Assembly (NCBI GenBank): GCA_003518055.1
Contig: DOZJ01000002.1
Coordinates: forward strand, 378,304 to 440,362
Direction of reading: 5' to 3'
DNA length: 62,059 nucleotides
Source: Candidatus Falkowbacteria bacterium
GTDB taxonomy: Bacteria > Patescibacteriota > Patescibacteriia > UBA11705
The translations under genes and the position numbers were made by a program. Of the stretch, positions 3,136 to 28,217 are shown piece by piece. Numbering within the stretch: position 1 is the stretch's first letter; each line of letters opens with the position of its first letter. Under the pieces are notes generated by a model, which saw only the letters and a program-made list of their open reading frames with translations, was not told the origin of the DNA and made no database searches.

Positions 3136-3981
3136 ATGATGAAAGCCATCACGTTGAGTCACGAGGATCGTGTTTATGAAGTAGCAAAGCTGGTCGGTGA
3201 GGACAGCCACGGCCGATACCGTTTGTATCGTTGTCGTGTCCCCGGAGTCGATCGAGAATATCTGCTTCAGATTGCTTCGGAGTTTAAACACAATGGTTCG
3301 TTGGATAAAGCGGCTTTTTTCCTTCGGGAATTGAAGCGCGTGGCTGATGAACTTGAAGCAGAATATAACCGGCTTGAACCGGGGAAGATGTTGAATTACC
3401 ATCTGTCATTCCCTGAACTGGTTGATAGTTTTGTGTGCGAGGAGCAGGGAAATCGCCGGGTCAATGTTCTGGCTTTCCGAAATGTTGACGTTATCAAGCG
3501 GCTGGTGCCGATTGCTAATATTGTTGAAATTGATGCGCTTCGGTGCGATCTGCGCAGCAGCGCTTGGGTCATGGGCAAGCTGTTGAAAATTCTGGTCCTA
3601 ACCCAGAGCATGAAGGTAGTCATCAATCAGGTTAATGGCGCCAATACTCTGCTCGATGCTGATCAGCATTATGTCGTGATCTTTGATTGGGCCGACTCGG
3701 AAATCCAGTCGGGTGAAATTCTTGCGGCCGTCGCCAGACGAGAAATCGGCAACGCCGCGTTCACCGTGATTGACCTCCTTGGAGGTGATTACAAGACGCG
3801 AACATTCCCCGAAGACGAGAGTGAATCCGCTGCCTATGCCGAGTACACGGCTTTTCTGCTGGGAATGGCTGACGGCCATCACAAGGATGCGGCGAAAGCG
3901 CACCGAGATTTTTACGCCGTCGTTGACAAGTATTGGTCGCGTGAGTTCTATCCTTTTACCACACACCCGCGATCCCGTTAA
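3136..3981 (+). CDS. Protein-kinase-fold-like protein, probably a pseudokinase (281 aa)
   Basis: ORF track. WVMGKLLKILVLTQSMKVVINQVNGANTLLDADQHYVVIFDWADS aligns by eye to the kinase catalytic-loop to DFG region (..vvHrDlkpeNiLld....vkliDFg.s). Q replaces the catalytic Asp and FDW replaces DFG. Confidence 0.6.
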   Translation: MMKAITLSHEDRVYEVAKLVGEDSHGRYRLYRCRVPGVDREYLLQIASEFKHNGSLDKAAFFLRELKRVADELEAEYNRLEPGKMLNYHLSFPELVDSFVCEEQGNRRVNVLAFRNVDVIKRLVPIANIVEIDALRCDLRSSAWVMGKLLKILVLTQSMKVVINQVNGANTLLDADQHYVVIFDWADSEIQSGEILAAVARREIGNAAFTVIDLLGGDYKTRTFPEDESESAAYAEYTAFLLGMADGHHKDAAKAHRDFYAVVDKYWSREFYPFTTHPRSR

Positions 3982-4001: not shown

Positions 4002-5171
4002 ATGGGACTTCGGACTCTAACCAGAGATGCCTATACTAATGTTAAATCAAGTGCTACTTTGGGTGGAACCAAAAGTGCTACTCATGCGGCTGAAGAAAGG
4101 GTTCATCGCGGTGAAGGTCTGGATCCGCTAGTTGATCCAAAGGGGCCGCCGCATCTCGGACCGGTTCGCATGTCTTTGCCTAGATATGAGAAAGTGGGAA
4201 ATCTTTGGCGTTTGACCGTCGGCATTCCTATGGCGGTAGAAAAATTGCTTGATACTACTGGGTCAATGGATAACAATGTTAATCTGGCTTTTGAAAACTG
4301 TCAGAAAGAATATGATCTCTATAGAGCTGGTGCTGTTCCTGTCCTTCATCGATATGATGTTCAGATGGCCACAGGTGCCTTCGGTGATGTTGAGGATTTT
4401 ACGAGGCTTGGTTTGCCCTTCTATTGCCGATCGCAGTTTGAGATGGATGAAAAGATCGCGGTTCAGATGTCTCTCATGGTCGCGGCCAAGAAGGGCTGGG
4501 GCAACGGCAAGGAAGACCCCCAGTTTGGCTTGTTTGGCGCTGCCTATTTGACTCAGGCGAGAATCAATGCCTACGGCCTGAAGTCTTATCACTTTACAGT
4601 GTCTGACGAACCCGTTGTGCCCGTAATTAATTATGACTGGCTGAAGCATGTCTTCGGTGATGATGTTTTGACCCATTGCGCGAGAATCGGATACCAGATG
4701 AGCGCCAATAAACTTCCCGATACGGCTCAGGTGGTCAAAGATTTACAGACAAGGGCACACGCATTTTTCCTCCTCGTAGATAATAGTCACTACGTAATTG
4801 AACAGTGGAAGGCTCTCTATGGTTCAGATCATTTCGTTTTTCTCCCGAATGGCACTACGGAGTATATCCATTTTGTGAACGCATGCATTATCGGTTTGAC
4901 CGAAGGTGTTCTTGATCTTCAAACCGCAAGGGAATTTTTGTTGGAGCATAAGCTTTCTCGTCCGGAAGCTGATAGTGTTGTTCGTGCTGTGGCCCATATT
5001 CCTCTTGGAGCTCAGGCTCAGTATCCGAACTTCGATAATCTGCCCAAGGCCGGCGATCTCTTCCGCGAGAAGACTGATCTCTGGCCGGTGGAACCGAGTG
5101 AAGTTGAGAATTCGGAAGCTACCGATGAGACTGCTGATGGCGAAAAGCCCGGCGGACCTGTCTGGCTCTGA
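4002..5171 (+). CDS. von Willebrand factor A (vWA)-like protein (389 aa)
   Basis: ORF track. GGGGAGGG SD. LLDTTGSMDNN resembles the vWA MIDAS motif DxSGSM (TerY-like). 20-nt gap from the upstream gene. Confidence 0.6.
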   Translation: MGLRTLTRDAYTNVKSSATLGGTKSATHAAEERVHRGEGLDPLVDPKGPPHLGPVRMSLPRYEKVGNLWRLTVGIPMAVEKLLDTTGSMDNNVNLAFENCQKEYDLYRAGAVPVLHRYDVQMATGAFGDVEDFTRLGLPFYCRSQFEMDEKIAVQMSLMVAAKKGWGNGKEDPQFGLFGAAYLTQARINAYGLKSYHFTVSDEPVVPVINYDWLKHVFGDDVLTHCARIGYQMSANKLPDTAQVVKDLQTRAHAFFLLVDNSHYVIEQWKALYGSDHFVFLPNGTTEYIHFVNACIIGLTEGVLDLQTAREFLLEHKLSRPEADSVVRAVAHIPLGAQAQYPNFDNLPKAGDLFREKTDLWPVEPSEVENSEATDETADGEKPGGPVWL

Positions 5172-5213: not shown

Positions 5214-6599
5214 ATGACCCGAAAGGTTTATGTGGTCACCGACCTCGGTCCGGGGGATGGTGGCAAGGGCGGAGTCGTTCACAAGATCGCTTCGATGCTG
5301 AAAGCGTTTCTGATTATCAAAGTGGGAGGCGCCCAAGGCAGCCATGGTGTCCGCACTTCGCGAGGTGAAAGCTTTGCGTTCAGTCAGTGGGGCTGTGGCA
5401 CGTTCGAGGGCATTCCGACTCACTTGTCACCTCGATTTATCGTTTCAATTGAAGGATTGTTGAATGAGGCCGAAGCCTTGCGCTATGGCCATGGCGTTCA
5501 CGATCCATTCAGTCTGCTGACGGTTGATCATCTGGCGCTCTGCTCAATTCCGTACCACGGTATTTCCTCGCGGCTAAAAGAATTGGCGCGCGGAAAAAAT
5601 CCGAGAGGTACGATTGGTACGGGAGTCGGCGAAGCTTTTCGCTATGCCCAAAGCCATCCGGAATTAAGTTTGAGAGTCAACGATTTGGCCCGGCCTGATA
5701 TGCGTGAGTTTCTGGCCGCAGTCCGCGATCAGATTACTCACGATCTCGAGCCAGTCATTCAGAGTGGATTTTTTGAAGAAGATGATCCGTTTGTCGAAGA
5801 AAATGTTCAGAAATTATTTGATGATGAGTTCCTGGATTTCATTACCGCTCGGGCCTATGCCTTGGCGCGAAATCTACAGGTAGTGGATCGCGATTATTTA
5901 CGGCAAATGTTCCTGCGTACTAATCGCCCGGCTGTAGTTGAAAGTTCACATGGAGTTCTGACTGATCACTACTGCGGTTTTGAACCGCATACTAGTGCCA
6001 TTCGGACTCTTCCAATGTTCGCGCATTCTATGCTTCGAGACGCTGATTTTGATGGTCAAATTGTCAATATCGGCGTGCATCGCGCATATGAAATCCGCCA
6101 CGGCGCTGGACCAATGCCAACGGCTGATGACGCCATGGGTGAAACTCTTTTGCCCGGCAGTCATAAAGAAGAAAACCGCTGGCAGGGAAAAGTTCGCGTC
6201 GGTCCGCTCGATTTGGTGCTCATGCGCTACGCGATAGCGTGCTGCGGGGGTCCCAAAGCTTTTGACGGACTGGCGATTACTTGGTTTGATCAGGTCCATG
6301 AAAATGGTGACTGGCAAATTTGTGATCATTACAAAAACGCGAAAGACAGAGAGTTTTTCACCCCTGATGGCGAGCTCAAAGTCAGTGTTGGCGACAACAT
6401 TGAACGGCTCATTTATCAGGAAGGTCTTGGGCAACAGCTTCAAGGTTGTATTCCCGAGATCAGTTCGATCCCTGTTCCCTTGAACGCGAACCGCGACGAG
6501 CTCTTCGAGCTCTGCGCCCGCGTTCTGCAGGAAAGACTTTCCGTCCCGGTGAGAATGGTCTCGCTGGGACCGACCGAAACCGACAAGGTCTGCAAGTAA
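5214..6599 (+). CDS. Divergent adenylosuccinate synthetase (PurA/AdSS)-family protein (461 aa)
   Basis: ORF track (5208). ATG at 5214 follows GAGGGAGG. Serial PurA motif matches: DLGPGDGGKGG vs GDEGKGK; GGAQGSHGV vs GGHNAGHT; RGTIGTGVGEAF vs TTGRGIGPAY; VESSHGVLTD...PHTSA vs LEGAQGTLLD...PFVTSS; HGAGPMPT vs GAGPFPTE. Confidence 0.7.
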   Translation: MTRKVYVVTDLGPGDGGKGGVVHKIASMLKAFLIIKVGGAQGSHGVRTSRGESFAFSQWGCGTFEGIPTHLSPRFIVSIEGLLNEAEALRYGHGVHDPFSLLTVDHLALCSIPYHGISSRLKELARGKNPRGTIGTGVGEAFRYAQSHPELSLRVNDLARPDMREFLAAVRDQITHDLEPVIQSGFFEEDDPFVEENVQKLFDDEFLDFITARAYALARNLQVVDRDYLRQMFLRTNRPAVVESSHGVLTDHYCGFEPHTSAIRTLPMFAHSMLRDADFDGQIVNIGVHRAYEIRHGAGPMPTADDAMGETLLPGSHKEENRWQGKVRVGPLDLVLMRYAIACCGGPKAFDGLAITWFDQVHENGDWQICDHYKNAKDREFFTPDGELKVSVGDNIERLIYQEGLGQQLQGCIPEISSIPVPLNANRDELFELCARVLQERLSVPVRMVSLGPTETDKVCK

Positions 6600-6622
6600 C
6601 CCCACAGCACAGGAAGAAGCCA

Positions 6623-7894
6623 ATGACAGATGTGAAAGTTCCCGTGACTCCCGTGTCTCCGACCGCTACTCCGACTCCTGCTTCGTCTCCCGAACCCGTG
6701 GTCGCTCCGCTGCCCGTCGTCGACGAGCTCATCGCACGGCTGAACACGCTCGGCGTCGACCCCGACACGATCAGCAAGATCAAGTCCGAGCTCGGTGCCT
6801 CCAGCCTCGACGACTTGCCGAACCTGACCGAGGAAGATCTCCTCAAGGTCGGCATGAAGGCGCTCCCTGCAAGGAAGCTGGTCCTGGCGCTGAAGCCGGC
6901 AGTCCCGACGGCGGTCGAAGTCGGATCCATGATGGGATCCAGTTCGGCCGATCTCGTCAACCTGCTGGCACCAGTTCCTGAGAGCCGCTCCATGCTCGAC
7001 GGCCTCAGCCTCGTCCAGATCGGGAAGATCGAGCGGACGGTCGTGTCGAACGGCATTCGCGCCGCTCTCGCGAGTCGTGCCGGCCTCTTCGATGTGCCGG
7101 CCTATCTGCTCGAGCTCATGAACGACTTCGTCACCAACCGCATGGAAGAGCCTGCGCCGCAGTCCTACTACGATCTGGAAGACGAGGTTGCGAAGCAGGA
7201 CAACGCCGAGGTTCTGCGCCTGCTCAAGGTCAGCGGTCGCTACACGACGAAGGAACGCAAGCATGAGTTCCTCGGTCGGATCGGTCGCCTCTGGCAGCCG
7301 GCCAAGACCTTCCAGGAGCAGCTCCAGGCCTGGTACGAGGCCTATCTCAAGGTCGCCGGCAGTCCCGCGGCCATGATGGCGGCGATGACAAGCCTCGCTG
7401 GTGGGGGCCGATCCGTTCTGCCGGTCGTCACCTCGACGCCCGACACCTCGCCTCTGCACGACGGTGCTCAGCTCGTGATCCAGTCGATCAATGCAGCATT
7501 CGCCGGACGGAACATCCCCGCGGCCATGGCGCTGGCCTTCGATGCCGAACGCATCAACGCGTTCCTCACGAGCGCGGACGTCATCCGCTATACAGGTTCG
7601 GTCAATCGCGAGGAGCTCGCACGTACGCTGGGCAAGCGGCTCGGCAGTACGCTGGTGACTCCCGACTACCGTCGGCTCGAGAACGTGCTCGTTCAGTTCG
7701 TACTGAGCGTGTACGAGATCGACGCTCGCGCACCGCTCGGTACGCCCCAGGAGCTGCAGTACATCATGGCGCTGTACATGCTCGGCCAGAACATCCCGTG
7801 GGATCGCCTTTTCGATGGCGTGACCAACGAGGGAGGCAGGGCCAGCAACAAGCTCACCGGCATCGGCGGCCGGGGCAAGCGCGACGACCTCTAG
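6623..7894 (+). CDS. Very G+C-rich hypothetical protein with P/T-rich N-terminus and SAM (sterile-alpha-motif)-like segment (423 aa)
   Basis: ORF track frame 6446..7894. I start at ATG 6623, preceded by AGGAAG. Third codon positions are almost all G/C. NLTEEDLLKVGMKALPARKLVLALK resembles the SAM-domain C-terminal consensus. The antisense 488-aa ORF is judged a shadow. Confidence 0.6.
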   Translation: MTDVKVPVTPVSPTATPTPASSPEPVVAPLPVVDELIARLNTLGVDPDTISKIKSELGASSLDDLPNLTEEDLLKVGMKALPARKLVLALKPAVPTAVEVGSMMGSSSADLVNLLAPVPESRSMLDGLSLVQIGKIERTVVSNGIRAALASRAGLFDVPAYLLELMNDFVTNRMEEPAPQSYYDLEDEVAKQDNAEVLRLLKVSGRYTTKERKHEFLGRIGRLWQPAKTFQEQLQAWYEAYLKVAGSPAAMMAAMTSLAGGGRSVLPVVTSTPDTSPLHDGAQLVIQSINAAFAGRNIPAAMALAFDAERINAFLTSADVIRYTGSVNREELARTLGKRLGSTLVTPDYRRLENVLVQFVLSVYEIDARAPLGTPQELQYIMALYMLGQNIPWDRLFDGVTNEGGRASNKLTGIGGRGKRDDL

Positions 7895-7934
7895 TCGTGA
7901 CTCCAAGTTCTTTTTCTGAATAAGTTATAATTTT

Positions 7935-7966
7935 CCGAGTAATTAATAGTTACTCGGTTTTTTTTT
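7935..7966 (+). terminator. Strong intrinsic terminator ending the 3136-7894 operon
   Basis: CCGAGTAA (7935-7942) pairs with TTACTCGG (7950-7957), followed by nine Ts. Confidence 0.8.
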
Positions 7967-7969
7967 GGA

Positions 7970-8079
7970 GATACGAATTACAAATTGGTACAAATAATAC
8001 AAAATTCGCTTGAGAACTATATGTGCGATAGTTATCTGCAATATTTGTAATATTAGTATAAGATTTGTAAATTTGTATC
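7970..8079. repeat. AT-rich nested palindrome (right boundary element of the island)
   Basis: GATACGAATTACAAATT ... AATTTGTAAATTTGTATC, with multiple TACAAAT/ATTTGTA heptamers. Outer arms are near-identical to those at 1380-1460. Confidence 0.65.
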
Positions 8080-8210
8080 CCAAGATTTGTAAAAAAAAAG
8101 ACACCAACTGATATTGGTGCTTATTTTTTTTGCAAATTCACTTATCTCGCTTGCCCGCCGAAGTCTCTTGACCGCCGAAATCTTGATGAAGGCGGTTGAC
8201 GCAGGTGGGC

Positions 8211-10088
8211 TTATCTTGCTTTCTCGCTTGAAACTATTTGAGGCAAAAACACTCGACTCGCGTACAGCCTCGTCGCCGTGAGACGATATCCTGAATCCCA
8301 AAATCTGCTATGCCCATCGATTAAGGACGCATGCGGGGTTTTGATTCCTCCTCGCCGCGGATAAAACTTAGCGAAACCTCTGTGCATCAGTCGGTATTGC
8401 ACCGAGTCGCGTTCCAATTCCTCGATATAAATTTTTCGCGCTTTGCGATTATGTAGAATTCTCCCGTTATCGTAGAAATAAGGAACCAGTAACGCATTTC
8501 GCAGTTCGTGGATTGCGGATTCTGTACCCACCCACACTGCGCCAAATAGCACGTGAGTCCAATGACTTTCTCCAAGAAGGGGACTGCTATCATCAAAGTC
8601 GTGAACTCTCAACGCATCATTGTCGTCCTTATCGAGCCAGAACATGACCACTTCATTTATGATTTTATTCTGAGCAAAATAGGTGTTCAGCAGTTCCTTG
8701 ATTGTTTCTTTATACCTAACATCAGTGTTTTGCCTGACGAAAATCGCCGCATCGCAGTCAGATGTTTTGTCTCCATAACCCTTGAGACGAGAGCCATAAA
8801 TCAAGAATACCGGGTAGATATAGGATGAAAGTTCAGCATCTGTCTCGATAATAACTTTAATAATCTTCCTGATTTCTGCGATTTCCGGTTGTAGAAAGCG
8901 TAGGTTCGCTGAGAATGGCCCTGATAAAGCCGGCACGGTTAATCCAAGCAATTCGAGGCTTGTATCTGTGACAATCTTCAAACTATGAAGTCGAAAGAAG
9001 GCCTTTGTTAAAGCATCACGGACTGCTGAGAATTCACATTTCCACAGTGCGAGCAGTTGCTCTTTATAGTTCGTATAAAGACTGGTCGCTCTGATTAAAT
9101 CCGTTTCAGCCGAAGCTTCAACCGCTTTTCGTACACCGTCAATGAACGCCAACTGGCATTCTACTTTTGTTCCGAGATCTGCAAACAATACAGCTTCATC
9201 GAGATCGAGAGTCCCGCTAAGAATCGCATTCTTGATTCCATTTCCGGTCTTTTCAATCGCCTGACGCTTGCGATCCTTGATGAGCCACGCGATCCGCTTT
9301 TCGAGGATATCGCCGAAATCATCACGCTCAATGGCGAAAAACTGCTCAGCTAATCTTTCTTGAATAATTTTTACGGATACAGGTGGTGCTTCTTCGTCAG
9401 ATGGTTCCAAAATCACATCATGCGATTTAATGAATCCCATGTCAGCCAAGACCGGCAAAGTCTCTTCAATGCTCTTCCTTAATGTTTCTTCCTCGCATTG
9501 TTCCAGCAGGTGAAAAACCGCACCAACCGTTAAAAAACCTTTTTCCACCAATTTCGGAATCAGATGCGCGGCCTTGACTACTCGCGGCAAATCATTGACA
9601 CGCTTTTCCACATCCATGACATCGCCGTCAACAAAGTTGGCGCGGACGTCAAGCATTGAAAGCAAATTATTCCAGGTGGTCATATAGGCAATCCGGAAAC
9701 GCGTGATTTCCAAGCGCAATTTCTCTTCCGCTGATTTCCAGTTAACATCAGGCAGAAACTCAAACGGCAGATACAGAATAATTCGCTGATAATCAGTTGA
9801 ATCTTCGAGTAAATCACTCAAAGAAGCGTACATCTCCGCGACCGTTATTTCATCGAGAAAGCCATCGTGAACAGCTTGTTCGAGTTCAATGCCAGGTTTT
9901 GGCAGCCGTGAAATAACCGCATCCAGCCGTTCATTCAGTTTTCTTCGCCAGACTAGCTCAGTCTGAAATTCGCGGTTGCTCGCTATATTATCCGGCCACA
10001 ATTTTTTGGCTAATTCCGGCCTTGAAAACAGCTCAACCACGGGCGGTACGATTATAATATCTCCGGTAGTATCTCCCATGTATTTCAT
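8211..10088 (-). CDS. Large protein with C-terminal Pol-beta-superfamily nucleotidyltransferase motif (625 aa)
   Basis: ORF track (to 10118). I start at MKYMGD (10088), preceded by AAGGAG. YGSRLKGYGDKTSDCDAAIFV fits G-S-x3-G-x5-S-D-x-D. The long helical N-terminal region is unassigned. Confidence 0.6.
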   Translation of the reverse strand: MKYMGDTTGDIIIVPPVVELFSRPELAKKLWPDNIASNREFQTELVWRRKLNERLDAVISRLPKPGIELEQAVHDGFLDEITVAEMYASLSDLLEDSTDYQRIILYLPFEFLPDVNWKSAEEKLRLEITRFRIAYMTTWNNLLSMLDVRANFVDGDVMDVEKRVNDLPRVVKAAHLIPKLVEKGFLTVGAVFHLLEQCEEETLRKSIEETLPVLADMGFIKSHDVILEPSDEEAPPVSVKIIQERLAEQFFAIERDDFGDILEKRIAWLIKDRKRQAIEKTGNGIKNAILSGTLDLDEAVLFADLGTKVECQLAFIDGVRKAVEASAETDLIRATSLYTNYKEQLLALWKCEFSAVRDALTKAFFRLHSLKIVTDTSLELLGLTVPALSGPFSANLRFLQPEIAEIRKIIKVIIETDAELSSYIYPVFLIYGSRLKGYGDKTSDCDAAIFVRQNTDVRYKETIKELLNTYFAQNKIINEVVMFWLDKDDNDALRVHDFDDSSPLLGESHWTHVLFGAVWVGTESAIHELRNALLVPYFYDNGRILHNRKARKIYIEELERDSVQYRLMHRGFAKFYPRRGGIKTPHASLIDGHSRFWDSGYRLTATRLYASRVFLPQIVSSEKAR

Positions 10089-10350
10089 TGATATCTCCTT
10101 TGACTGTTTTGACTCCATTTTGCTAATTTTAGTCCTCCAAGTTGGCCTGGAATCTTATAACATTTTTTACTTTTTGTCAAGTTTTGCTTATCGTTCCTCA
10201 GGAGCGGTTGCAACTATAAATAATTATAACAAAAAGAATTGTTGCTCAAATCAAAACAATCGAAAAACATTGATTGTTATTTTTAAGTCGAGTTTAACTG
10301 AAATCGGGTTCAGTTCCAAAAACGACAATTATTTGTTATTATTAACTTAT

Positions 10351-11760
10351 ATGAACACCAACGCGAAAAGTAAAACCAAAGACTTTCCCAAACCGGAAAA
10401 GTTTAGACGATTAATCGGTCCCAGTTTTATTATTTTAGCTCTTGGACTCGGCTCAGGCGAGGTGATCTTATGGCCGTATTTGGCTTCAAACTATGGACTT
10501 GGTTTGGTTTGGGGGGCGGTTTTGGGGATCACGTTTCAATTTTTTATCAATACTGAAATTGAACGATACGCCTTGGTCAAGGGCGAAAGCGTTTTTGTCG
10601 GGATTAATAAATTTTGGCGGGGAGCAGCCTATTGGTTTATTTTCTCCACGTTTATTGGCTTTGGTTTACCTGGTATTATTGCCGCCTCCGCCAAAGTAGC
10701 TTCCGCATTATTTGGCTGGGAAGAACATCGTTGGCTGGCTGTGTTATTTTTAGTGTTGATTGGGGTGATTCTATCAGCCGGTAAAACTGTATATGGTTTG
10801 ATGGAAAAATTAACCAAAACCATTATTCTAATCGGAGTTCCTTTTATCTTTGGTTTGGCAGTCTATTTAAGTTCATCCTCTGATTGGTCTGCTTTGGCCA
10901 ACGGCTTTGTCGGTCGCGGCGAGGGCTTTTGGTTTATCGCCCCCGGGATGGCTCTCGCCACTTTTCTGGCGGCGTTTGCATATTCCGGCGCGGGAGGCAA
11001 TCTCAACCTGACTCAGTCGATTTATATCCGGGAAAAAGGTTATGGTATGGGGAAGTATGCCCAAAAAATCGCCGGTCTTTTTACGCAAAAAGAAAAACAC
11101 CAAAAAATTAAATTAGCGGGATATGATTTTGAGCATGATGAAAAAAATATTACGAATTGCTTGACGTGGTGGCGTCAGATTAATCTCGAACATTTGATAG
11201 TTTTCTGGTTTGTCGGGCTGGTGTCGATTGTAATGTTGATGCTTTTGGCCTTTGTTACCACCAATGGGCTAAGCGGCACTGAACAGGGTATAAGTTTTAT
11301 TCTTTTTGAGGCCTCGGTGATTGGTCAATCTGCCATGCCGGCAATGGGAATCGCGTTCTTAATCGTTGTTGTGATCATGTTGTTTCAAACCCAGCTGGGT
11401 GTGATGGATTCAACTTCGAGAATCATGGCGGAGAATTACGCGATAAAGATTTTAGCGAAAAGTAACAATCAAACAATTAATCTGGCCAAAATATATTATG
11501 TCTTTTTATGGCTTCAAATATCATTTGGTATAATCTTGTTTTTATTCAATGTCTCTGAGCCAAAAACATTGTTAGTGCTTGGCGCCGTGATAAATGCTTT
11601 TGCCATGTTGGTTCATGTGCCTTTGGTTGCTTGGCTTAATCACAAATATCTCCCCCGGTTCTGTCGACCGGGGAACGCGCGAAAAATCGTTATGGGTTTA
11701 ATATCGTTGTTTTTATTGTGTTTTTTTATTTTTATAATGATTAATCAATTTTTTGAATAA
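10351..11760 (+). CDS. Polytopic membrane transporter, Nramp/APC-fold-like (469 aa)
   Basis: ORF track frame 9976..11760, starting at MNTNAKSK (10351). GPSFIILALGLGSGEVILWPY resembles Nramp TM1. About 11-12 TM helices. Family assignment is tentative. Confidence 0.55.
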   Translation: MNTNAKSKTKDFPKPEKFRRLIGPSFIILALGLGSGEVILWPYLASNYGLGLVWGAVLGITFQFFINTEIERYALVKGESVFVGINKFWRGAAYWFIFSTFIGFGLPGIIAASAKVASALFGWEEHRWLAVLFLVLIGVILSAGKTVYGLMEKLTKTIILIGVPFIFGLAVYLSSSSDWSALANGFVGRGEGFWFIAPGMALATFLAAFAYSGAGGNLNLTQSIYIREKGYGMGKYAQKIAGLFTQKEKHQKIKLAGYDFEHDEKNITNCLTWWRQINLEHLIVFWFVGLVSIVMLMLLAFVTTNGLSGTEQGISFILFEASVIGQSAMPAMGIAFLIVVVIMLFQTQLGVMDSTSRIMAENYAIKILAKSNNQTINLAKIYYVFLWLQISFGIILFLFNVSEPKTLLVLGAVINAFAMLVHVPLVAWLNHKYLPRFCRPGNARKIVMGLISLFLLCFFIFIMINQFFE

Positions 11761-12896: not shown

Positions 12897-14318
12897 ATGC
12901 GCAAGGTTCTCGCAAGCCTGTTCTTCTCGCTCATGGTGGTCGCCATCATGGGCAACCGTTCGTGCGTGCCGGTCGAGCCGGAGGAGCCGGCCTGCCTGGA
13001 CGACGGCTTCGTCTGCACCGCCGACAGCGAGTGCTGCGGCGGTCTGTGCTGGAATAACCCCGGCGATCCGTTCGCGATCTACGGCGAGTGCCGGAGCACG
13101 AATGACGGCTGGTGCAACACGGACGCAGACTGCCCCGACGGCCAGTTCTGTACGGGGGAGGGTTACTGTCTGGGGGACTTCGGTCCGTGCCAGGTCGAAG
13201 GCCTTGAGGCCTGCGTGCCGGGTGAAAACAAGCATTTCGATTCCTGTGTGGCCGCGCGCAGCGGTGAGCTCCGGCTCGTCCGTAGCCATTGCGGCCGCGA
13301 GAACACTTGTGTGTTCACATCGCAGTCCACTGTCGCTTGTGAGCCGGTTTCGGATCTCGAGGGAGTTCCTTGCGCCGATGACGCGGACTGTGCAGGATCG
13401 CTCTTCTGTGACCACGGTGTGTGCAGTATGCCCTGCACCAATGAGTATGACTGTCAGGAAGGGCAGCTCTGCTACTCATGGACCAACACCTGCCAGTGGC
13501 CGAACAGCGGCGAGTTCTGCAACGTGTCCTCGGATTGTCCGAACTATAGCGGCGACTCCAACCAGTGGCCCCACGGCGGGCAGATCTGCTATCAGGGCCA
13601 TTGCGACTACTACATCTTCGGTCCGTGCGAGGTTGAGAGCCAGATGCTCTGCGCGCCCGAGGACGGTCCGGCCGAATTCTACCGCTGTGTGGTCGAAGAC
13701 GGCACGGAGGTCCTTCACTGGATCCGCGGCACCTGCGGTGCGGCTTATGAGTGCGTCAAGAACTCGGACGGCAACGGACAGTGCATTGCGCCGCAGCCGG
13801 CAGAAAGCTCGGTCCAAGTGTCTCGGCTCATGAGCCAGTCTCAGCTCTACTACGGTGAGAACCAGATGTTCGTCTTCCGTCTTATGATCGTGGCGCTGGA
13901 CGGCTTCGTCGGCGAACACGGAGTGTTGAATGAGCTTTCGTTCAGCATTCAGATGTCGGAGAGGGATTATAGCCGAATTCATTACTGCAAGGTGGTGGAG
14001 TACCAAACCGGCTATATGCTCGACTACAGCGACAACCTCGAGCTGCGGACCTCCGAGACTGGTAGTCAGTACGCTTTGGTCAACTTTCACTTCGAGGGTG
14101 ATGTCCTGCTGCCAGTCGGCGCGTATACTAATCTGGAGCTGAGGTGCTTTGTCGCTTCCGGCGGAGCTCCATACGAGGCCATCCAGACAGGTTTCATCGG
14201 CAGGCTCGGCACATCCCCGGCAGACGCCATCGTGGTCTATGGGGTCGAGAGCGGGGAGCGCCTTTCGGTGTCCCCAACATATTCGGAGGATACCTTGGTA
14301 TCGATCCTGACTCGCTAA
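12897..14318 (+). CDS. Secreted cysteine-rich repeat protein, very G+C-rich (473 aa)
   Basis: ORF track. N-terminal signal-like segment MRKVLASLFFSLMVVAIMG. Repeated modules such as CTADSECCGGLC, CNTDADCPDGQFC, CADDADCAGSLFC, CTNEYDCQEGQLC and CNVSSDCPNY. Alternative-frame and antisense ORFs are judged shadows. Confidence 0.7.
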   Translation: MRKVLASLFFSLMVVAIMGNRSCVPVEPEEPACLDDGFVCTADSECCGGLCWNNPGDPFAIYGECRSTNDGWCNTDADCPDGQFCTGEGYCLGDFGPCQVEGLEACVPGENKHFDSCVAARSGELRLVRSHCGRENTCVFTSQSTVACEPVSDLEGVPCADDADCAGSLFCDHGVCSMPCTNEYDCQEGQLCYSWTNTCQWPNSGEFCNVSSDCPNYSGDSNQWPHGGQICYQGHCDYYIFGPCEVESQMLCAPEDGPAEFYRCVVEDGTEVLHWIRGTCGAAYECVKNSDGNGQCIAPQPAESSVQVSRLMSQSQLYYGENQMFVFRLMIVALDGFVGEHGVLNELSFSIQMSERDYSRIHYCKVVEYQTGYMLDYSDNLELRTSETGSQYALVNFHFEGDVLLPVGAYTNLELRCFVASGGAPYEAIQTGFIGRLGTSPADAIVVYGVESGERLSVSPTYSEDTLVSILTR

Positions 14319-24836: not shown

Positions 24837-25907
24837 TTAACGACGCCGACCGCCGCCTGAGCTGCGGAATCCGCCGCCGCTGCTCCTGCGGGCGCCTCCG
24901 CCGCCCCAGCCGCTGCTTCTCGGCGCTGCCGGTCTGGTCGCAGCCGGCCTGGTGCCGCCGCCGCTCGGGGTTGTATGCCAGCCGGGCTTGGCCGGAGGTG
25001 TCCGTCCAGCCGGTGCCGCTTCGGGCTGCTTGGTGGCGCCAGCGCCGAATCCCGTCGCCTTGCGCTTGGTCTGGTTCGGGTCGCGCGCCTGATAGTCGCG
25101 GGTCGTTCCGGCTCGTCCGGCTACGCCCTGCCCCGGCTTGTTATACTGGGTTGACTTGGCGTACTTGCTCGGCTTCTCTGCCGACTTGATGACCTTCGAG
25201 GTCGGTCGAGTCGTCTTGGAGATCGGCGACACCTGTGTCTTGGTGATCTGCCGACTCGATCGGAACGAATCTCGACGTGAGCTGAGCGCCGGACCGGCAA
25301 AGACCGGTCGCGGCGAGTAGAAGCCCGTCCGATACATCGGTACGTAGTATGGCCGCGGCGAGAACATGTAGCCGAGCAGTAGTCCGGTGGCAAAGCCACT
25401 GCCATGATGGTAGGCCATGGGGTAACTATAATAATAATCATTGTAGCCGTGGACGTGCTGACTGTAGCCGCCAGAGATCACGACCTGATTCGTGGTCGTA
25501 TTCCGCTCGAACTCTACCTGACCGATGGTGACTCCGTCTTCCTCCTTGCCGGTGGATGATGGAATGGCCACGAGGTCGACCAGCCGCTTGATGTCGTTCG
25601 ACTCTGGCAGCTCGCGGAAGACGACATAGTCGATCTTCCCATCCTGATCGATATCGACATTGTTGATTCCGGATTCGCCGTTGACCAGCGTCTCCATCTC
25701 TTCGATGCTCGCGACCTTGTTCTCGCGAATCATGGTCATAAGCGTCTCGAGATCGAAATCATCGGTCTTGACCGAGCCGGTGGTCTCCGTTTCAGTCTGG
25801 GTATACGTCTGATGGCTCGAGTGGGTACTTCGGCCGCAGCCGGCCCCGATAAAGATCATCAGGCTGAGAATAGCAAAAATAGGCAGAAAAACCCTCGGAT
25901 AGCGCAT
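24837..25907 (-). CDS. G+C-rich lipoprotein with DxDxDG Ca-binding-like loop, Tyr-rich segment and R/G/P-rich tail (356 aa)
   Basis: ORF track. AAGGAGG SD. Lipobox-like IGAGC. NNVDIDQDGKIDY. The C-terminus ends ...GGGGARRSSGGGFRSSGGGRRR. Confidence 0.65.
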   Translation of the reverse strand: MRYPRVFLPIFAILSLMIFIGAGCGRSTHSSHQTYTQTETETTGSVKTDDFDLETLMTMIRENKVASIEEMETLVNGESGINNVDIDQDGKIDYVVFRELPESNDIKRLVDLVAIPSSTGKEEDGVTIGQVEFERNTTTNQVVISGGYSQHVHGYNDYYYSYPMAYHHGSGFATGLLLGYMFSPRPYYVPMYRTGFYSPRPVFAGPALSSRRDSFRSSRQITKTQVSPISKTTRPTSKVIKSAEKPSKYAKSTQYNKPGQGVAGRAGTTRDYQARDPNQTKRKATGFGAGATKQPEAAPAGRTPPAKPGWHTTPSGGGTRPAATRPAAPRSSGWGGGGARRSSGGGFRSSGGGRRR

Positions 25908-26113: not shown

Positions 26114-26959
26114 GTGGGGATGGCTGAGACAGTTTTAAACGCTCCAACTCAGGAATCATATGTTCTGAAACGCGCTCTGACCAATCCGGTTACCATAGTG
26201 TCATTTATTCTTGGTGTCTTGTGTGGCATTCTGCTGGCTTCGGTTGATTTTAGTACGCTGTTTCTGGTTGGCTTGATTGTGTTTGTTGTGGTTGCGTTCG
26301 GATCCTTTATTTTGGATGTTACCACGCGCAAGGTATTTTTCTTGGAAGATTGGCTGAAGATCGTCAAGACGCAGATGAAGCAGCGACAAAACCGTGATGT
26401 TCATGATCTACGTCTTGAAATTGCCGAGTGTGGTCGGATTCCCGGAACCACCACCCGCGTAGTGGCGGCCAATAATCAATTTCGAGTGGTCGAGCGGGTT
26501 TTTGGCAAGATTGATCAAGTCCTGGCGCATAAATACAAGACCGGAGAAATTAAGTATGGCAAGTTTTTGGCCGCGGCCGAAGGTTTGTCAAAAGCGATTC
26601 TGTCACATTTGAGACAGATTGTTACTCTGCTCCAGAGTCTGGGAGCGCTGCAGCCAAACGACAAGAGACTGGAATTTTTAGAGCGGCTCACCAGCCAGAC
26701 ACCGCAATTTGAGGCGGAAAGAGATCGTCTCCGGCAGCAGGCCGAAAGAAAGACCAGGGTTTATATCGAGGTGGATCGCATTATCACTGAAAATGAAACC
26801 GCCATTGGGGCGCTTGAAACCATGCTCGACAAGATCGCCTCAACTCCCACTGATATGGTTAGTGCTGCTGACTTTGCGGATTTACTCAATCAAGTCGCTG
26901 ATATTTCTAACCGTCTCGACACCACCAAGCATGAGGAGCGTACCGATGACAATGGCTGA
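26114..26959 (+). CDS. xpaC: XpaC-like membrane/coiled-coil protein (281 aa)
   Basis: Two N-terminal TM helices then a long helical region. Sits immediately upstream of, and overlapping, a TelA-family gene, as in the B. subtilis xpaC-yaaN pair. Assignment is by architecture and synteny only. Confidence 0.45.
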   Translation: MGMAETVLNAPTQESYVLKRALTNPVTIVSFILGVLCGILLASVDFSTLFLVGLIVFVVVAFGSFILDVTTRKVFFLEDWLKIVKTQMKQRQNRDVHDLRLEIAECGRIPGTTTRVVAANNQFRVVERVFGKIDQVLAHKYKTGEIKYGKFLAAAEGLSKAILSHLRQIVTLLQSLGALQPNDKRLEFLERLTSQTPQFEAERDRLRQQAERKTRVYIEVDRIITENETAIGALETMLDKIASTPTDMVSAADFADLLNQVADISNRLDTTKHEERTDDNG

Positions 26960-28217
26960 ACAGCAGAGTCAGGCTTTGATGATTCCTGAAGATGTCCCAG
27001 CCGCGCGGCCGCTTATGGTTGCGACAAGAGATGATGAGGCGCTGAAGCGTGATCTCGGCTTGGCGACCGCTGCTGATCTGCGGACTGGTCCGACAGACAT
27101 GGTGCTTTTTGAAAAGGCTGGCAGTATCGCGCAGCAGCTTCTGACGGTTGATCTGACGGATCCGGCCGTCGGCCAGACCCAGCGCAAGATGATGGAATCC
27201 TTTGGCCAGACTGCCGAGCGCAAGTGCCACAAGTCTTCAGGGATGCTCAGCACACCGCTTGGCAAGATGAAGGGGCTCGATGGCCAGGATTCCGGTCTTG
27301 CATCTTCACTTTCGTCTCTGACAGCCAAGGTTCAGGATTTGAATCCGGGCAAGTACAAGCTTGATCCCTCTAAGTACGGCTTGCTTCGGCGATTCTTCAT
27401 CCGTTTGACGCTGATGGCTCCGCCTCTTCGGACTTATCTCGCCAAGTTCCAGTCTGGTGAGATGGCTATCAATCTAATCATTGATGCCCTTGAAAGTGGC
27501 AAGGAAAAGCTTGAGAGGAATAATGATGAACTTGAGACCGAGCAGACTGAGATGCGGCGCGCCACCTTCGAGTTGCAGCAGGCCATCAAGCTCGGTCATG
27601 CTCTCGATAAGCATTTGACCAATGTCCATGATTCCATTAATGCTTCTGCTTCAGAGGATGAGCGGCTCAAGAAGCGCTACGTGGCTGAGGAGCTCCTATT
27701 CCCGCTGCGTCAGCGCATCGAGGATCTCCAGCAGCTTCTGGCAGTCAATCAGATGGGTGTGATTGCCACTGAAGTACTGATGAAAAATAATCGGGAACTC
27801 ATCCGCGGTGTCAATCGCGCCATCAAGGTTACGACCCGGGCACTTCGCATCGCCGTCATGCTCAGTGTGGGGCTTCATGACCAGCAGTCAGTGTTTGCTC
27901 AGACCAGCGCAATCAATGATACCACGAATGAGCTGCTTGTTCAGGATGCGGCACAGTTGCGGACGCAGGGCGTCGCGATTCACAAGCAGGCGGCCAGCGC
28001 CATGCTCAACATCGAAATGTTGAAGCGGGCGATGGAAGATACCATGATGGCCTTTGATGAGATTTCTCAGTTCCGTCAGGAAGCCCTGCCCAAGATGCGC
28101 GCTGACATCGATGCTTTGGAGGAGCTCACTACCGGCGCTGACAACAAGATCCGTGAAATGGAACGGGGCAAGGCGGCTCGTCCGATGATCGATCTGGCCG
28201 TTTCCGAAGCGGCCTGA
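26946..28217 (+). CDS. telA: TelA/KlaA-family toxic-anion-resistance protein (423 aa)
   Basis: ORF track frame 26709..28217. I start at ATG 26946 after GAGGAG (26934-26939), a 14-nt overlap with xpaC. Long helical TelA-like pattern (YLAKFQSGEMAINLIIDALESGKEKLERNNDELETEQTEM...). Confidence 0.7.
   Translation: MTMAEQQSQALMIPEDVPAARPLMVATRDDEALKRDLGLATAADLRTGPTDMVLFEKAGSIAQQLLTVDLTDPAVGQTQRKMMESFGQTAERKCHKSSGMLSTPLGKMKGLDGQDSGLASSLSSLTAKVQDLNPGKYKLDPSKYGLLRRFFIRLTLMAPPLRTYLAKFQSGEMAINLIIDALESGKEKLERNNDELETEQTEMRRATFELQQAIKLGHALDKHLTNVHDSINASASEDERLKKRYVAEELLFPLRQRIEDLQQLLAVNQMGVIATEVLMKNNRELIRGVNRAIKVTTRALRIAVMLSVGLHDQQSVFAQTSAINDTTNELLVQDAAQLRTQGVAIHKQAASAMLNIEMLKRAMEDTMMAFDEISQFRQEALPKMRADIDALEELTTGADNKIREMERGKAARPMIDLAVSEAA

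Follow-up and report, generated by a model that had tools for sequence, protein, structure and literature searches.

The stretch analyzed here, 62,059 nucleotides of a Candidatus Falkowbacteria bacterium (assembly GCA_003518055.1, contig DOZJ01000002.1, forward-strand positions 378,304 to 440,362; hereafter the window), contains a gene at 6623–7894 on the plus strand whose guanine-plus-cytosine (GC) content rises far above that of its surroundings. The question raised by this locus is whether such an anomaly marks the arrival of foreign DNA. The original prediction, made from the sequence alone, read the abrupt change inside an operon as either a very recent acquisition from a high-GC donor or a chimeric assembly. 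Comparisons with other genomes point in a different direction. The gene, referred to below as gene 4, has long been part of a module of five genes that has a patchy but wide distribution in Patescibacteria (the candidate phyla radiation, CPR), and its excess of GC at silent sites is, on balance, probably an equilibrium that is specific to this gene and maintained.

The anomaly itself is genuine. The host genome is 1.31 Mb in size (8 contigs, 97.6% complete), and the window averages 44.9% GC. From the ATG at 6623 to the stop codon at 7892–7894, the coding sequence has 63.9% GC (0.639), with 0.663, 0.443, and 0.809 at the first, second, and third codon positions (GC1, GC2, and GC3, respectively). 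Compared with the open reading frames (ORFs) of at least 200 amino acids in the same genome (n = 728; GC 0.447, standard deviation 0.049; GC3 0.474, standard deviation 0.078), these values correspond to z = 3.9 for GC and z = 4.3 for GC3, such that the atypical composition expected of a recently acquired gene is present. Only three of these 728 ORFs have a GC3 of 0.8 or more. Amino acid composition was ruled out as the cause: when the amino acids of gene 4 are combined with the codon choice typical of the genome, a GC3 of 0.514 is expected, and the excess over this value is therefore synonymous. Codon usage in gene 4 shows no correlation with the genome as a whole (r = −0.05). A codon bias of the type seen in highly expressed genes was also rejected, because EF-Tu, EF-G, and DnaK have ordinary GC3 values in this genome (0.40, 0.43, and 0.46, respectively; GroEL has 0.55).

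In a sliding window, GC content increases from about 0.50 to 0.60–0.66 across approximately 6450–7900 and drops to 0.35–0.39 directly afterwards. The claim that the jump falls exactly at a gene boundary holds for the 3′ side, where the edge is sharp and the stop codon is directly followed by an AT-rich terminator. This intrinsic terminator (7935–7967, plus strand; 10-bp stem and T-run) resembles the host genome in composition and ends the operon. The claim does not hold for the 5′ side, where the edge is approximate: the last 30–45 codons of the upstream gene have GC3 of 0.63–0.77, and the first 30 codons of gene 4 have 0.53. The start at 6623 is favored over an upstream TTG at 6446, since homologs begin with MTD or MSD at the equivalent position and a Shine-Dalgarno-like AGGAAG (6611–6616, plus strand) is located 6 nucleotides 5′ of the ATG. 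The 1.31-Mb genome contains about 34 scattered GC-rich islets with a combined length of 32 kb, two or three of which are located in the window. When pooled, the islets have a codon usage that correlates with gene 4 (r = 0.89) but not with the remaining genome. Other sharply bounded GC-rich genes are found in the window at 12897–14318, 24837–25907, and 26709–28217 (GC 0.54–0.61, GC3 0.63–0.77).

A GC-rich piece of another organism joined in silico would produce such a jump in composition, which is the sole observation that speaks for an assembly chimera. Contigs from Logan (9,343 and 17,491 bases, from two groundwater samples) span 5600–8900 and cross both boundaries with 0 differences and even word depth; although the contigs and the genome may go back to the same raw data, they were built by different assemblers. 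A soil run (X5) yielded only short fragments of the flanking DNA at low depth. The reading frames fit, as do the ribosome-binding site and the 23-nucleotide spacer between the upstream PurA-like gene and gene 4. Furthermore, the gene order around gene 4 is identical in more than 40 other genomes, and its recurrence in dozens of other assemblies argues against a chimera more decisively than the contigs do. Gene 4 is not a chimeric join, and we regard this explanation as unlikely in the extreme.

The conserved gene order defines the module: a kinase-like gene, a vWA-like gene, a PurA-like gene, and gene 4, followed by a convergent gene for a Pol-beta-type nucleotidyltransferase. A genome search together with tblastn, in which the neighboring proteins of the window were used as queries, found the module in 8 other genomes. 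With a clade alignment as the query, a scan of GTDB species representatives, one genome each, provided 54 loci. All five genes are present in 40 of these, and most of the others are cut by contig ends; in all, the module was seen in about 50 CPR genomes. Nearly all of the 54 loci have record titles from the Patescibacteria, among them Saccharibacteria, Paceibacteria, Minisyncoccia, Falkow-, Uhr-, Moran-, Wildermuth-, Peri-, Kaiser-, and Nomurabacteria. When modules are compared in pairs, the identities of the five proteins are correlated (Spearman 0.51–0.81), which indicates that the five genes travel together. At the level of gene 4 alone, at least 327 clusters at 50% identity were found with E-values up to 1e-3 (HMMER search of 1.84 billion representative proteins), and none of them is annotated.

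Some module-bearing records of metagenome-assembled genomes (MAGs) have titles from other groups, namely Gammaproteobacteria, Fimivivens, Fibrobacteres, Turicibacter, and Omnitrophota (loci L045, accession CAYGDX010000001.1, L046, L047, L057, L078, and L085). For the first of these, "uncultured Gammaproteobacteria" CAYGDX01, the gene coordinates equal those of a genome (G735) that is placed in the window's own CPR class. At least this record is mislabeled, and the non-CPR titles in general are probably wrong, or the contigs mis-binned. An alternative layout, with gene 4 placed ahead of the kinase-like, vWA-like, and PurA-like genes, was observed at five loci (L063, L068, L073, L086, and L088); no nucleotidyltransferase gene was detected within the stretches fetched for these five.

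The composition of gene 4 was compared across 39 modules that were complete and surrounded by 4 kb or more of other DNA, with local GC content (4–14 kb) as the background. Among these loci, which are species representatives rather than phylogenetically independent samples, gene 4 always exceeds its local background (39 of 39), by +0.142 on average and with extremes of +0.016 and +0.269. In 36 of the 39, all four other genes have a lower GC content. The offset of the window copy (+0.205) corresponds to the 85th percentile of this sample and is therefore ordinary for the family. The other genes form a graded series, with mean offsets of +0.105 for the vWA-like, +0.067 for the PurA-like, +0.056 for the kinase-like, and +0.005 for the nucleotidyltransferase gene. 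Relative to the PurA-like gene, gene 4 is higher by 0.025 at GC1, 0.025 at GC2, and 0.175 at GC3, and its GC3 is the higher one in all 39 modules. Relative to the nucleotidyltransferase gene, the GC3 difference is +0.255, with gene 4 higher in 38 of 39. Because this nucleotidyltransferase is co-inherited and stays at background GC, it serves as an internal control for the anomaly.

Several simple causes were examined. The GC3 excess is even along gene 4, save for the usual 5′ dip, and a localized RNA or DNA element was rejected on this ground. Position in the operon was rejected as well, since gene 4 is also GC-rich when it comes first, as in the alternative layout. Mean pairwise identity is 0.485 for gene 4 and 0.514 for the PurA-like protein; the two are about equally conserved, such that rapid protein turnover is not the explanation. 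The GC content of gene 4 tracks that of the host background (slope 0.87, r = 0.67) over backgrounds of 28–54% GC.

These comparisons bear directly on the idea of a single, very recent import, in which gene 4 entered a resident operon from a donor of high GC content, such as the lineage that hosts an epibiont. The codon usage that is unrelated to the genome, the sharp 3′ edge, and a C-terminal domain whose subtype disagrees with the module phylogeny are all consistent with this idea. However, this slot is GC-rich in every one of the 39 modules compared, meaning that GC richness is the rule for this slot across the CPR, and the co-distributed nucleotidyltransferase remains at background GC. The part of the protein that is typical of the module is itself GC-rich, and the ribosome-binding site and terminator are host-like. 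The closest relatives are only 51–69% identical (C-terminal domain), and none of them comes from an identified non-CPR lineage. No homolog of gene 4 was located outside CPR-type genomes, and the suggestion that the best hits might match a presumed host lineage thus did not hold. Relatives in a donor lineage and orthologous loci that lack the anomaly, both expected for a recently acquired gene, were not found. We therefore consider a single import improbable.

Traces of a mobile element were also sought. No integrase, tRNA target, or island-specific direct repeats were found in the first 12 kb of the window, and the gene-4 family has no match in viral contigs, phage records, or plasmid records. 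AT-rich nested palindromes composed of TACAAAT/TACGAAT-like words flank the operon region at 1370–1470 and 7960–8100. Copies are present at five or more other sites of the genome (contig 1 at about 255,460; contig 2 at about 60,590, 129,220–129,430, 134,930, and 268,590–268,660). Short pieces from around 8044–8093 also occur in other contigs of three metagenome runs, with one contig per run having a 2-base deletion at 8057. A role of these palindromes as island borders was rejected, as they belong to a dispersed intergenic repeat family of this genome, and this too counts against a single import. The nucleotidyltransferase gene was considered as a resident anchor for insertion of the operon. 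This was rejected because, in the class sample, the gene occurs only together with the operon, in five module-bearing genomes (the window's genome, G000, included), except for one short fragment in G558.

The suggestion that the gene was spliced into the operon proved to be right in part, given that the window copy does carry a splice of sorts. Across genomes, the slot holds at least three kinds of gene 4, in which the SAM-like N-terminal domain is constant and the helical C-terminal domain is exchangeable. Type A is found in G550, G735, and G424, with 67–73% identity to each other, and in the more distant members G015 and G389. Type B, in G479, G403, and G539 (64–70% mutual identity), has the same SAM-like start joined to an unrelated C-terminal part. 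The window protein is 35–39% identical to type A, whereas its PurA-like neighbor is 57–62% identical to the PurA-like proteins of the same type A genomes (50% for G389). Residues 31–96 share 51–59% identity with the SAM domain in types A and B and are essentially unrelated to the N-termini of the homologs P0002–P0006. In contrast, residues 105–400 are 51–69% identical to P0002–P0006 and P0014 and only 33–38% identical to type A. The window copy is thus a mosaic of a module-typical SAM domain and a helical domain of another subtype, here named type C.

The gene trees agree with this picture. In the gene-4 tree, the window clade sits on a long stem (100/100) beside the copies of G771, G644, G630, and G682 (91/89, an unstarred support value), whereas in the PurA-like tree, the window is placed firmly among the module-bearing genomes (100/100). 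The type-C alignment had no match in genome contigs (one genome per species) and one partial relative in metagenome contigs. Type B copies are located at L016:8295-9332, L040:9455-10453, and L039:1806-2885, and their C-terminal domain of about 250 amino acids has no Pfam match. The type B gene of G403 has a GC3 of 0.90 in a background of 36% GC. In the window copy, the SAM part and the swapped-in domain are equally GC-rich, and type B copies can be richer still; the swap therefore does not account for the high GC content. A recent import from a high-GC source, the other half of the splicing claim, finds no support in the 39 GC-rich modules.

Repeated transfer provides a more elaborate explanation. 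In this scenario, the four-gene operon was transferred many times among CPR lineages from GC-rich reservoirs, which could be GC-rich CPR genomes or mobile elements not yet seen, and ameliorated incompletely, such that copies differ in how far they have decayed toward the composition of their host. Gene 4 would be the component that was GC-richest at the start or the one most often replaced. GC-rich CPR genomes do exist in the same class (G682 at about 0.66 and G630 at about 0.59), and three of the sister copies of the window clade in the gene-4 tree (G771, G644, G630, and G682) reside in GC-richer surroundings of 0.55–0.66. The wide range of offsets among hosts, the elevation of the whole operon, and gene-4 proteins that are closely related while differing widely in GC3 would all follow from such a history, and gene 4 has been swapped at least twice. 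The module is patchy and its flanks are not conserved. Counting this genome, the gene-4 family was found in 3 of the 401 genomes sampled from the phylum, in 6 of 61 relatives, and in 13 of the 401 sampled from the class.

Several of these observations also weigh against a maintained equilibrium. The gene-4 family was not found in a genome of the same genus (84% complete), nor in one genome of the same family, and its presence in only 13 of 401 class-sample genomes reflects the patchiness of the module. Together with flanks that are not conserved in close relatives, this patchiness makes a horizontal spread of the module among CPR lineages likely, and with such a spread it is less safe to assume compositional equilibrium at each locus. 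In the hosts with the lowest GC content, gene 4 is far less GC-rich (GC3 0.24–0.40), and close relatives may differ strongly in the GC3 of gene 4 (0.80 in G550 and 0.40 in G735). The whole operon, rather than gene 4 alone, is somewhat elevated, and amelioration after transfer would give the same GC3 pattern. Finally, the folding of the mRNA relative to synonymous shuffles does not single out gene 4 (z = −3.3, compared with −4.7 for the PurA-like gene), and shuffling also erases local GC heterogeneity. As for the neighborhood, the flanking genes at 1491–2684 and 10354–11757 are absent or located elsewhere in the closest relatives (G401–G404), marking it as a variable region.

Other evidence is difficult to reconcile with repeated transfer. 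The nucleotidyltransferase gene is co-distributed and co-diverging with the operon, yet in these same loci its GC content is that of the host. Across hosts, the genes keep broadly the same order when ranked by GC3, and protein identities of 35–60% between modules imply that synonymous sites are saturated. Searches of viral contigs and of phage and plasmid records were negative, and the module-typical SAM segment is as GC-rich as the swapped-in domain. Repeated transfer is thus unlikely in our view, although far from negligible, and a maintained equilibrium is the reading that we prefer. As to its cause, that a gene-specific force holds the GC3 of gene 4 at 17–25 points above its co-inherited operon neighbors in dozens of CPR lineages is a serious possibility, which we would place slightly short of even. 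Such a force may be selection at synonymous sites, acting for example on mRNA stability or level. Alternatively, it may be GC-biased conversion linked to frequent recombination at a slot that is prone to swaps.

A different constraint could arise from dual coding, in which a real overlapping gene in an antisense frame keeps the GC content high. The original prediction had noted a 488-amino acid antisense ORF (6440–7906, minus strand, codon-aligned with gene 4) as a shadow typical of high-GC DNA, and this description was borne out. Gene 4 lacks any TTA, CTA, or TCA codon, which is why the antisense frame is open. The ORF is full-length in the window and in 10 of 39 orthologs. However, the frame stays open in 1000 of 1000 synonymous shuffles, it is broken by 1–19 stops in 29 of 39 orthologs with the number of stops tracking GC3, and the distribution of GC over its codon positions matches a non-coding frame. 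The antisense ORF is an automatic by-product and not a real gene, and dual coding is very improbable as a cause of the excess.

Turning to the protein, which has 423 amino acids, the full-length AlphaFold2 (AF2) model is mediocre, with a mean predicted local distance difference test (pLDDT) score of 68. Residues 1–33 (6623–6721, plus strand; GC3 0.53) form a Pro/Thr-rich N-terminus of low confidence (pLDDT < 50) that is probably disordered. Residues 34–96 (6722–6910, plus strand), the constant part of the slot, are modeled as a domain of five helices, from H35-42 to H80-90. In an exhaustive structural comparison with VIA, the best match of this domain was the SAM domain of ASK3 (6v0m; Z 7.9, root-mean-square deviation (rmsd) 2.0, 63 residues, 32% identity), followed by EphA2/SHIP2 (5zrx; Z 7.7) and by EphA5, EphA1, PHC3, CASKIN2, and p73 (Z 7.0–7.6). 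The top eight matches are all SAM domains (58–71 residues aligned, rmsd 1.8–3.7 for most), with Z scores of 7.0–7.9 that, being below 8, can reflect a common helical arrangement. Tandem helix-hairpin-helix domains, (HhH)2, of XPF, FANCM, and Hef are close behind (Z 6.6–7.0). HHH_5 matches occur in 2 of 120 family members. Domains of this type carry two HhH motifs with Gly-rich hairpins (hxxhxGhGxxxAxxhh), and alignment A7 shows only a single conserved turn with Gly (G.K..pARK).

Sequence profiles lead to a similar picture. In the window protein, Pfam matches are below threshold for both SAM_TNK (20.1 bits, cut-off 25) and SAM_1 (19.3 bits, cut-off 23). Among the 120 family members, SAM_TNK is found in 13 at E ≤ 0.01 (best E 3.8e-6), and Pfam SAM models in 13 to 19. 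When the family profile was compared with PDB sequences, the SAM domain of polyhomeotic ranked first (1pk1; E 1.4e-3), followed by the C-terminal domain of RNA polymerase alpha and NusA (HhH type; E about 0.04). Scores below 0.9 to eukaryotic SAM-containing clusters in the ESM Atlas serve as leads only. The predicted structure thus supports a SAM-like assignment of residues 34–96 at the level of the fold, and membership in a curated SAM family is not claimed. The eukaryote-like SAM signature that was proposed from the sequence therefore stands for the fold (ASK3, Z 7.9) and fails at the Pfam threshold (SAM_TNK), and a eukaryotic origin does not follow from it. Among the other module proteins, none showed a second SAM-like domain.

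The remainder of the protein is better modeled. With 120 homologs, residues 105–423 gave an AF2 model with pLDDT 89 and a predicted template modeling score of 0.84, all-alpha with about 16 helices. The type C domain corresponds to residues 105–399 (6935–7819, plus strand) and is a divergent subtype that has no known relative. No Pfam family was found in this domain in any of the 120 members. It has no Foldseek match, its best VIA matches are small designed or viral helical bundles (Z 6.9), and the comparison of the family profile with PDB sequences gave no match to it. For both gene-4 models, Foldseek returned nothing significant from PDB and BFVD. Searches of gene 4 with PADLOC and NCBIfam likewise found nothing, and PHROGs gave one weak match of unknown function. 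The helical domain contains no conserved motif that looks catalytic, as the near-invariant positions are mostly Trp, Gly, Leu, and Ala, together with one Asn and one Glu.

Two candidate identities of the helical domain were rejected. A HEPN partner of an MNT-type nucleotidyltransferase, as in HEPN/MNT (type VII toxin-antitoxin) pairs, would be a four-helix domain with an Rx4-6H motif, whereas the domain has a conserved N-R-E/D and no such motif; the VIA likeness to an AMPylated HEPN toxin (Z 5.2) is at noise level. A fold of the ClyA-type pore-forming toxins was discarded because the match (Z 6.5) has an rmsd of 8.7 and the helices are short.

Residues 400–423 (7820–7891, plus strand; pLDDT < 50) form a flexible tail that ends in TGIGG-x7-L. 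In module-type relatives, a motif [ST]G[IL]GG, 2–6 residues, and a C-terminal Leu recur, and 69 of 180 tails end in Leu. Many other members of the gene-4 family end in Tyr or Phe. From its sequence, this tail looks like one that mediates docking or acts as a degron, and it is a candidate ligand for the metal site of the vWA-like protein.

Gene 1 of the module (3136–3981, plus strand) encodes a protein-kinase-like product that matches a PHROG kinase family and, by profile, the catalytic-loop/DFG region of CK2-alpha (E 7e-5). In its alignment (A5), an Asn and a DW(S/A) element are retained opposite this region. The HRD aspartate appears to be absent, so that the product is probably a pseudokinase or an atypical kinase. 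Gene 2 (4002–5171, plus strand) encodes a putative vWA-like protein that co-occurs with the other module genes and has no Pfam match. Gene 3 (5214–6599, plus strand) encodes a divergent ligase of the adenylosuccinate synthetase fold (Pfam Adenylsucc_synt, E 6.5e-31); every NCBIfam purA model is far under its cut-off, and its PHROG match is a PurZ-type family. Gene 5 (8211–10118, minus strand), the convergent gene at background GC, encodes a 635-amino acid protein with a C-terminal Pol-beta-type nucleotidyltransferase domain, for which Pfam Polbeta was found in 10 of 10 orthologs and a GS...DxD motif is invariant. In PADLOC-DB 2.0, genes 1–4 have no match and gene 5 has only a weak one (E 0.006).

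In the same class, three CPR genomes with high local GC content (0.55–0.67) carry relatives of gene 4 (L034 in G771, L036 in G682, and L035 in G630). Two of these three carry a distant PurA-like gene (30–32% identical) beside or near the gene-4 relative, and this suggests that an additional, older form of the pairing exists.

The function may be judged from the domain architecture. The SAM-like domain would act as an adaptor for oligomerization or docking, linking a variable helical payload with the other components of the module, and the module as a whole may, at a guess, be an accessory, conflict-type, or regulatory system. Prokaryotic conflict systems include effector-associated domains and vWA-containing ternary systems (Kaur et al., 2020; PMC7159879). 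The module resembles these in having a constant small N-terminal helical domain with exchangeable C-terminal domains, encoded in an operon with putative vWA, kinase-like, and nucleotide-handling enzymes. It differs in that no matching SAM-like domain was detected on the other module proteins and PADLOC finds no match; moreover, the paper cited makes no mention of a PurA-like enzyme. A defense role for the module is thus a conjecture. With SAM domains in general, gene 4 shares a five-helix bundle of about 65 residues and the pattern L..L.e.DL...G.k..pARKl...l, but it stays below the Pfam gathering cut-offs and is fused to a novel helical domain in a bacterial operon.

With regard to composition, the framework of Lawrence and Ochman describes how horizontally acquired genes and islands with atypical composition undergo amelioration. 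Gene 4 resembles such islands in being a single gene about 4 standard deviations above the genome in GC and GC3, with codon usage unlike the host, in a variable genome region and a patchy module. Unlike in such islands, the anomaly recurs at the orthologous slot in all 39 modules compared, which span a phylum-level radiation, and is graded between co-inherited genes; a linked gene lacks it, and searches revealed neither a donor lineage nor a mobility gene, nor any copy on a phage or plasmid. The nearest published parallel found is provided by the gene clusters of Alphaproteobacteria that resemble the Rhodobacter capsulatus gene transfer agent (RcGTA), in which a GC excess at GC1 and GC2 is attributed to cheap amino acids and GC3 is not different (Kogay et al., 2020; PMC7360931). 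Both are conserved clusters with GC content persistently above that of their hosts for reasons other than recent transfer. They differ in that the excess in gene 4, measured against the adjacent PurA-like gene, is mostly at GC3 (+0.175, compared with +0.025 at GC1 and at GC2).

Atypical GC content or codon usage is routinely read as recent transfer, contamination, or MAG chimerism, and for this class of genes such calls would be wrong. A GC3 excess in hosts with background GC contents from 28 to 54% is not predicted by amelioration under mutation and drift. The work presented here defines an unannotated, CPR-wide module of five genes and a family of at least 327 clusters, with a helical domain that is confidently modeled and has no relative among solved structures. 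Relatives of the module are carried by Saccharibacteria that can be cultured and manipulated. If the reading of a maintained equilibrium is true, GC and codon usage anomalies would not be reliable markers of recent transfer in these genomes, and the module and the other conserved GC-rich genes of this genome would point to an undescribed constraint on synonymous sites in ultra-small bacteria. Independently of this, the SAM-like adaptor with its swappable helical domain would represent a new, uncharacterized five-gene system of the CPR.

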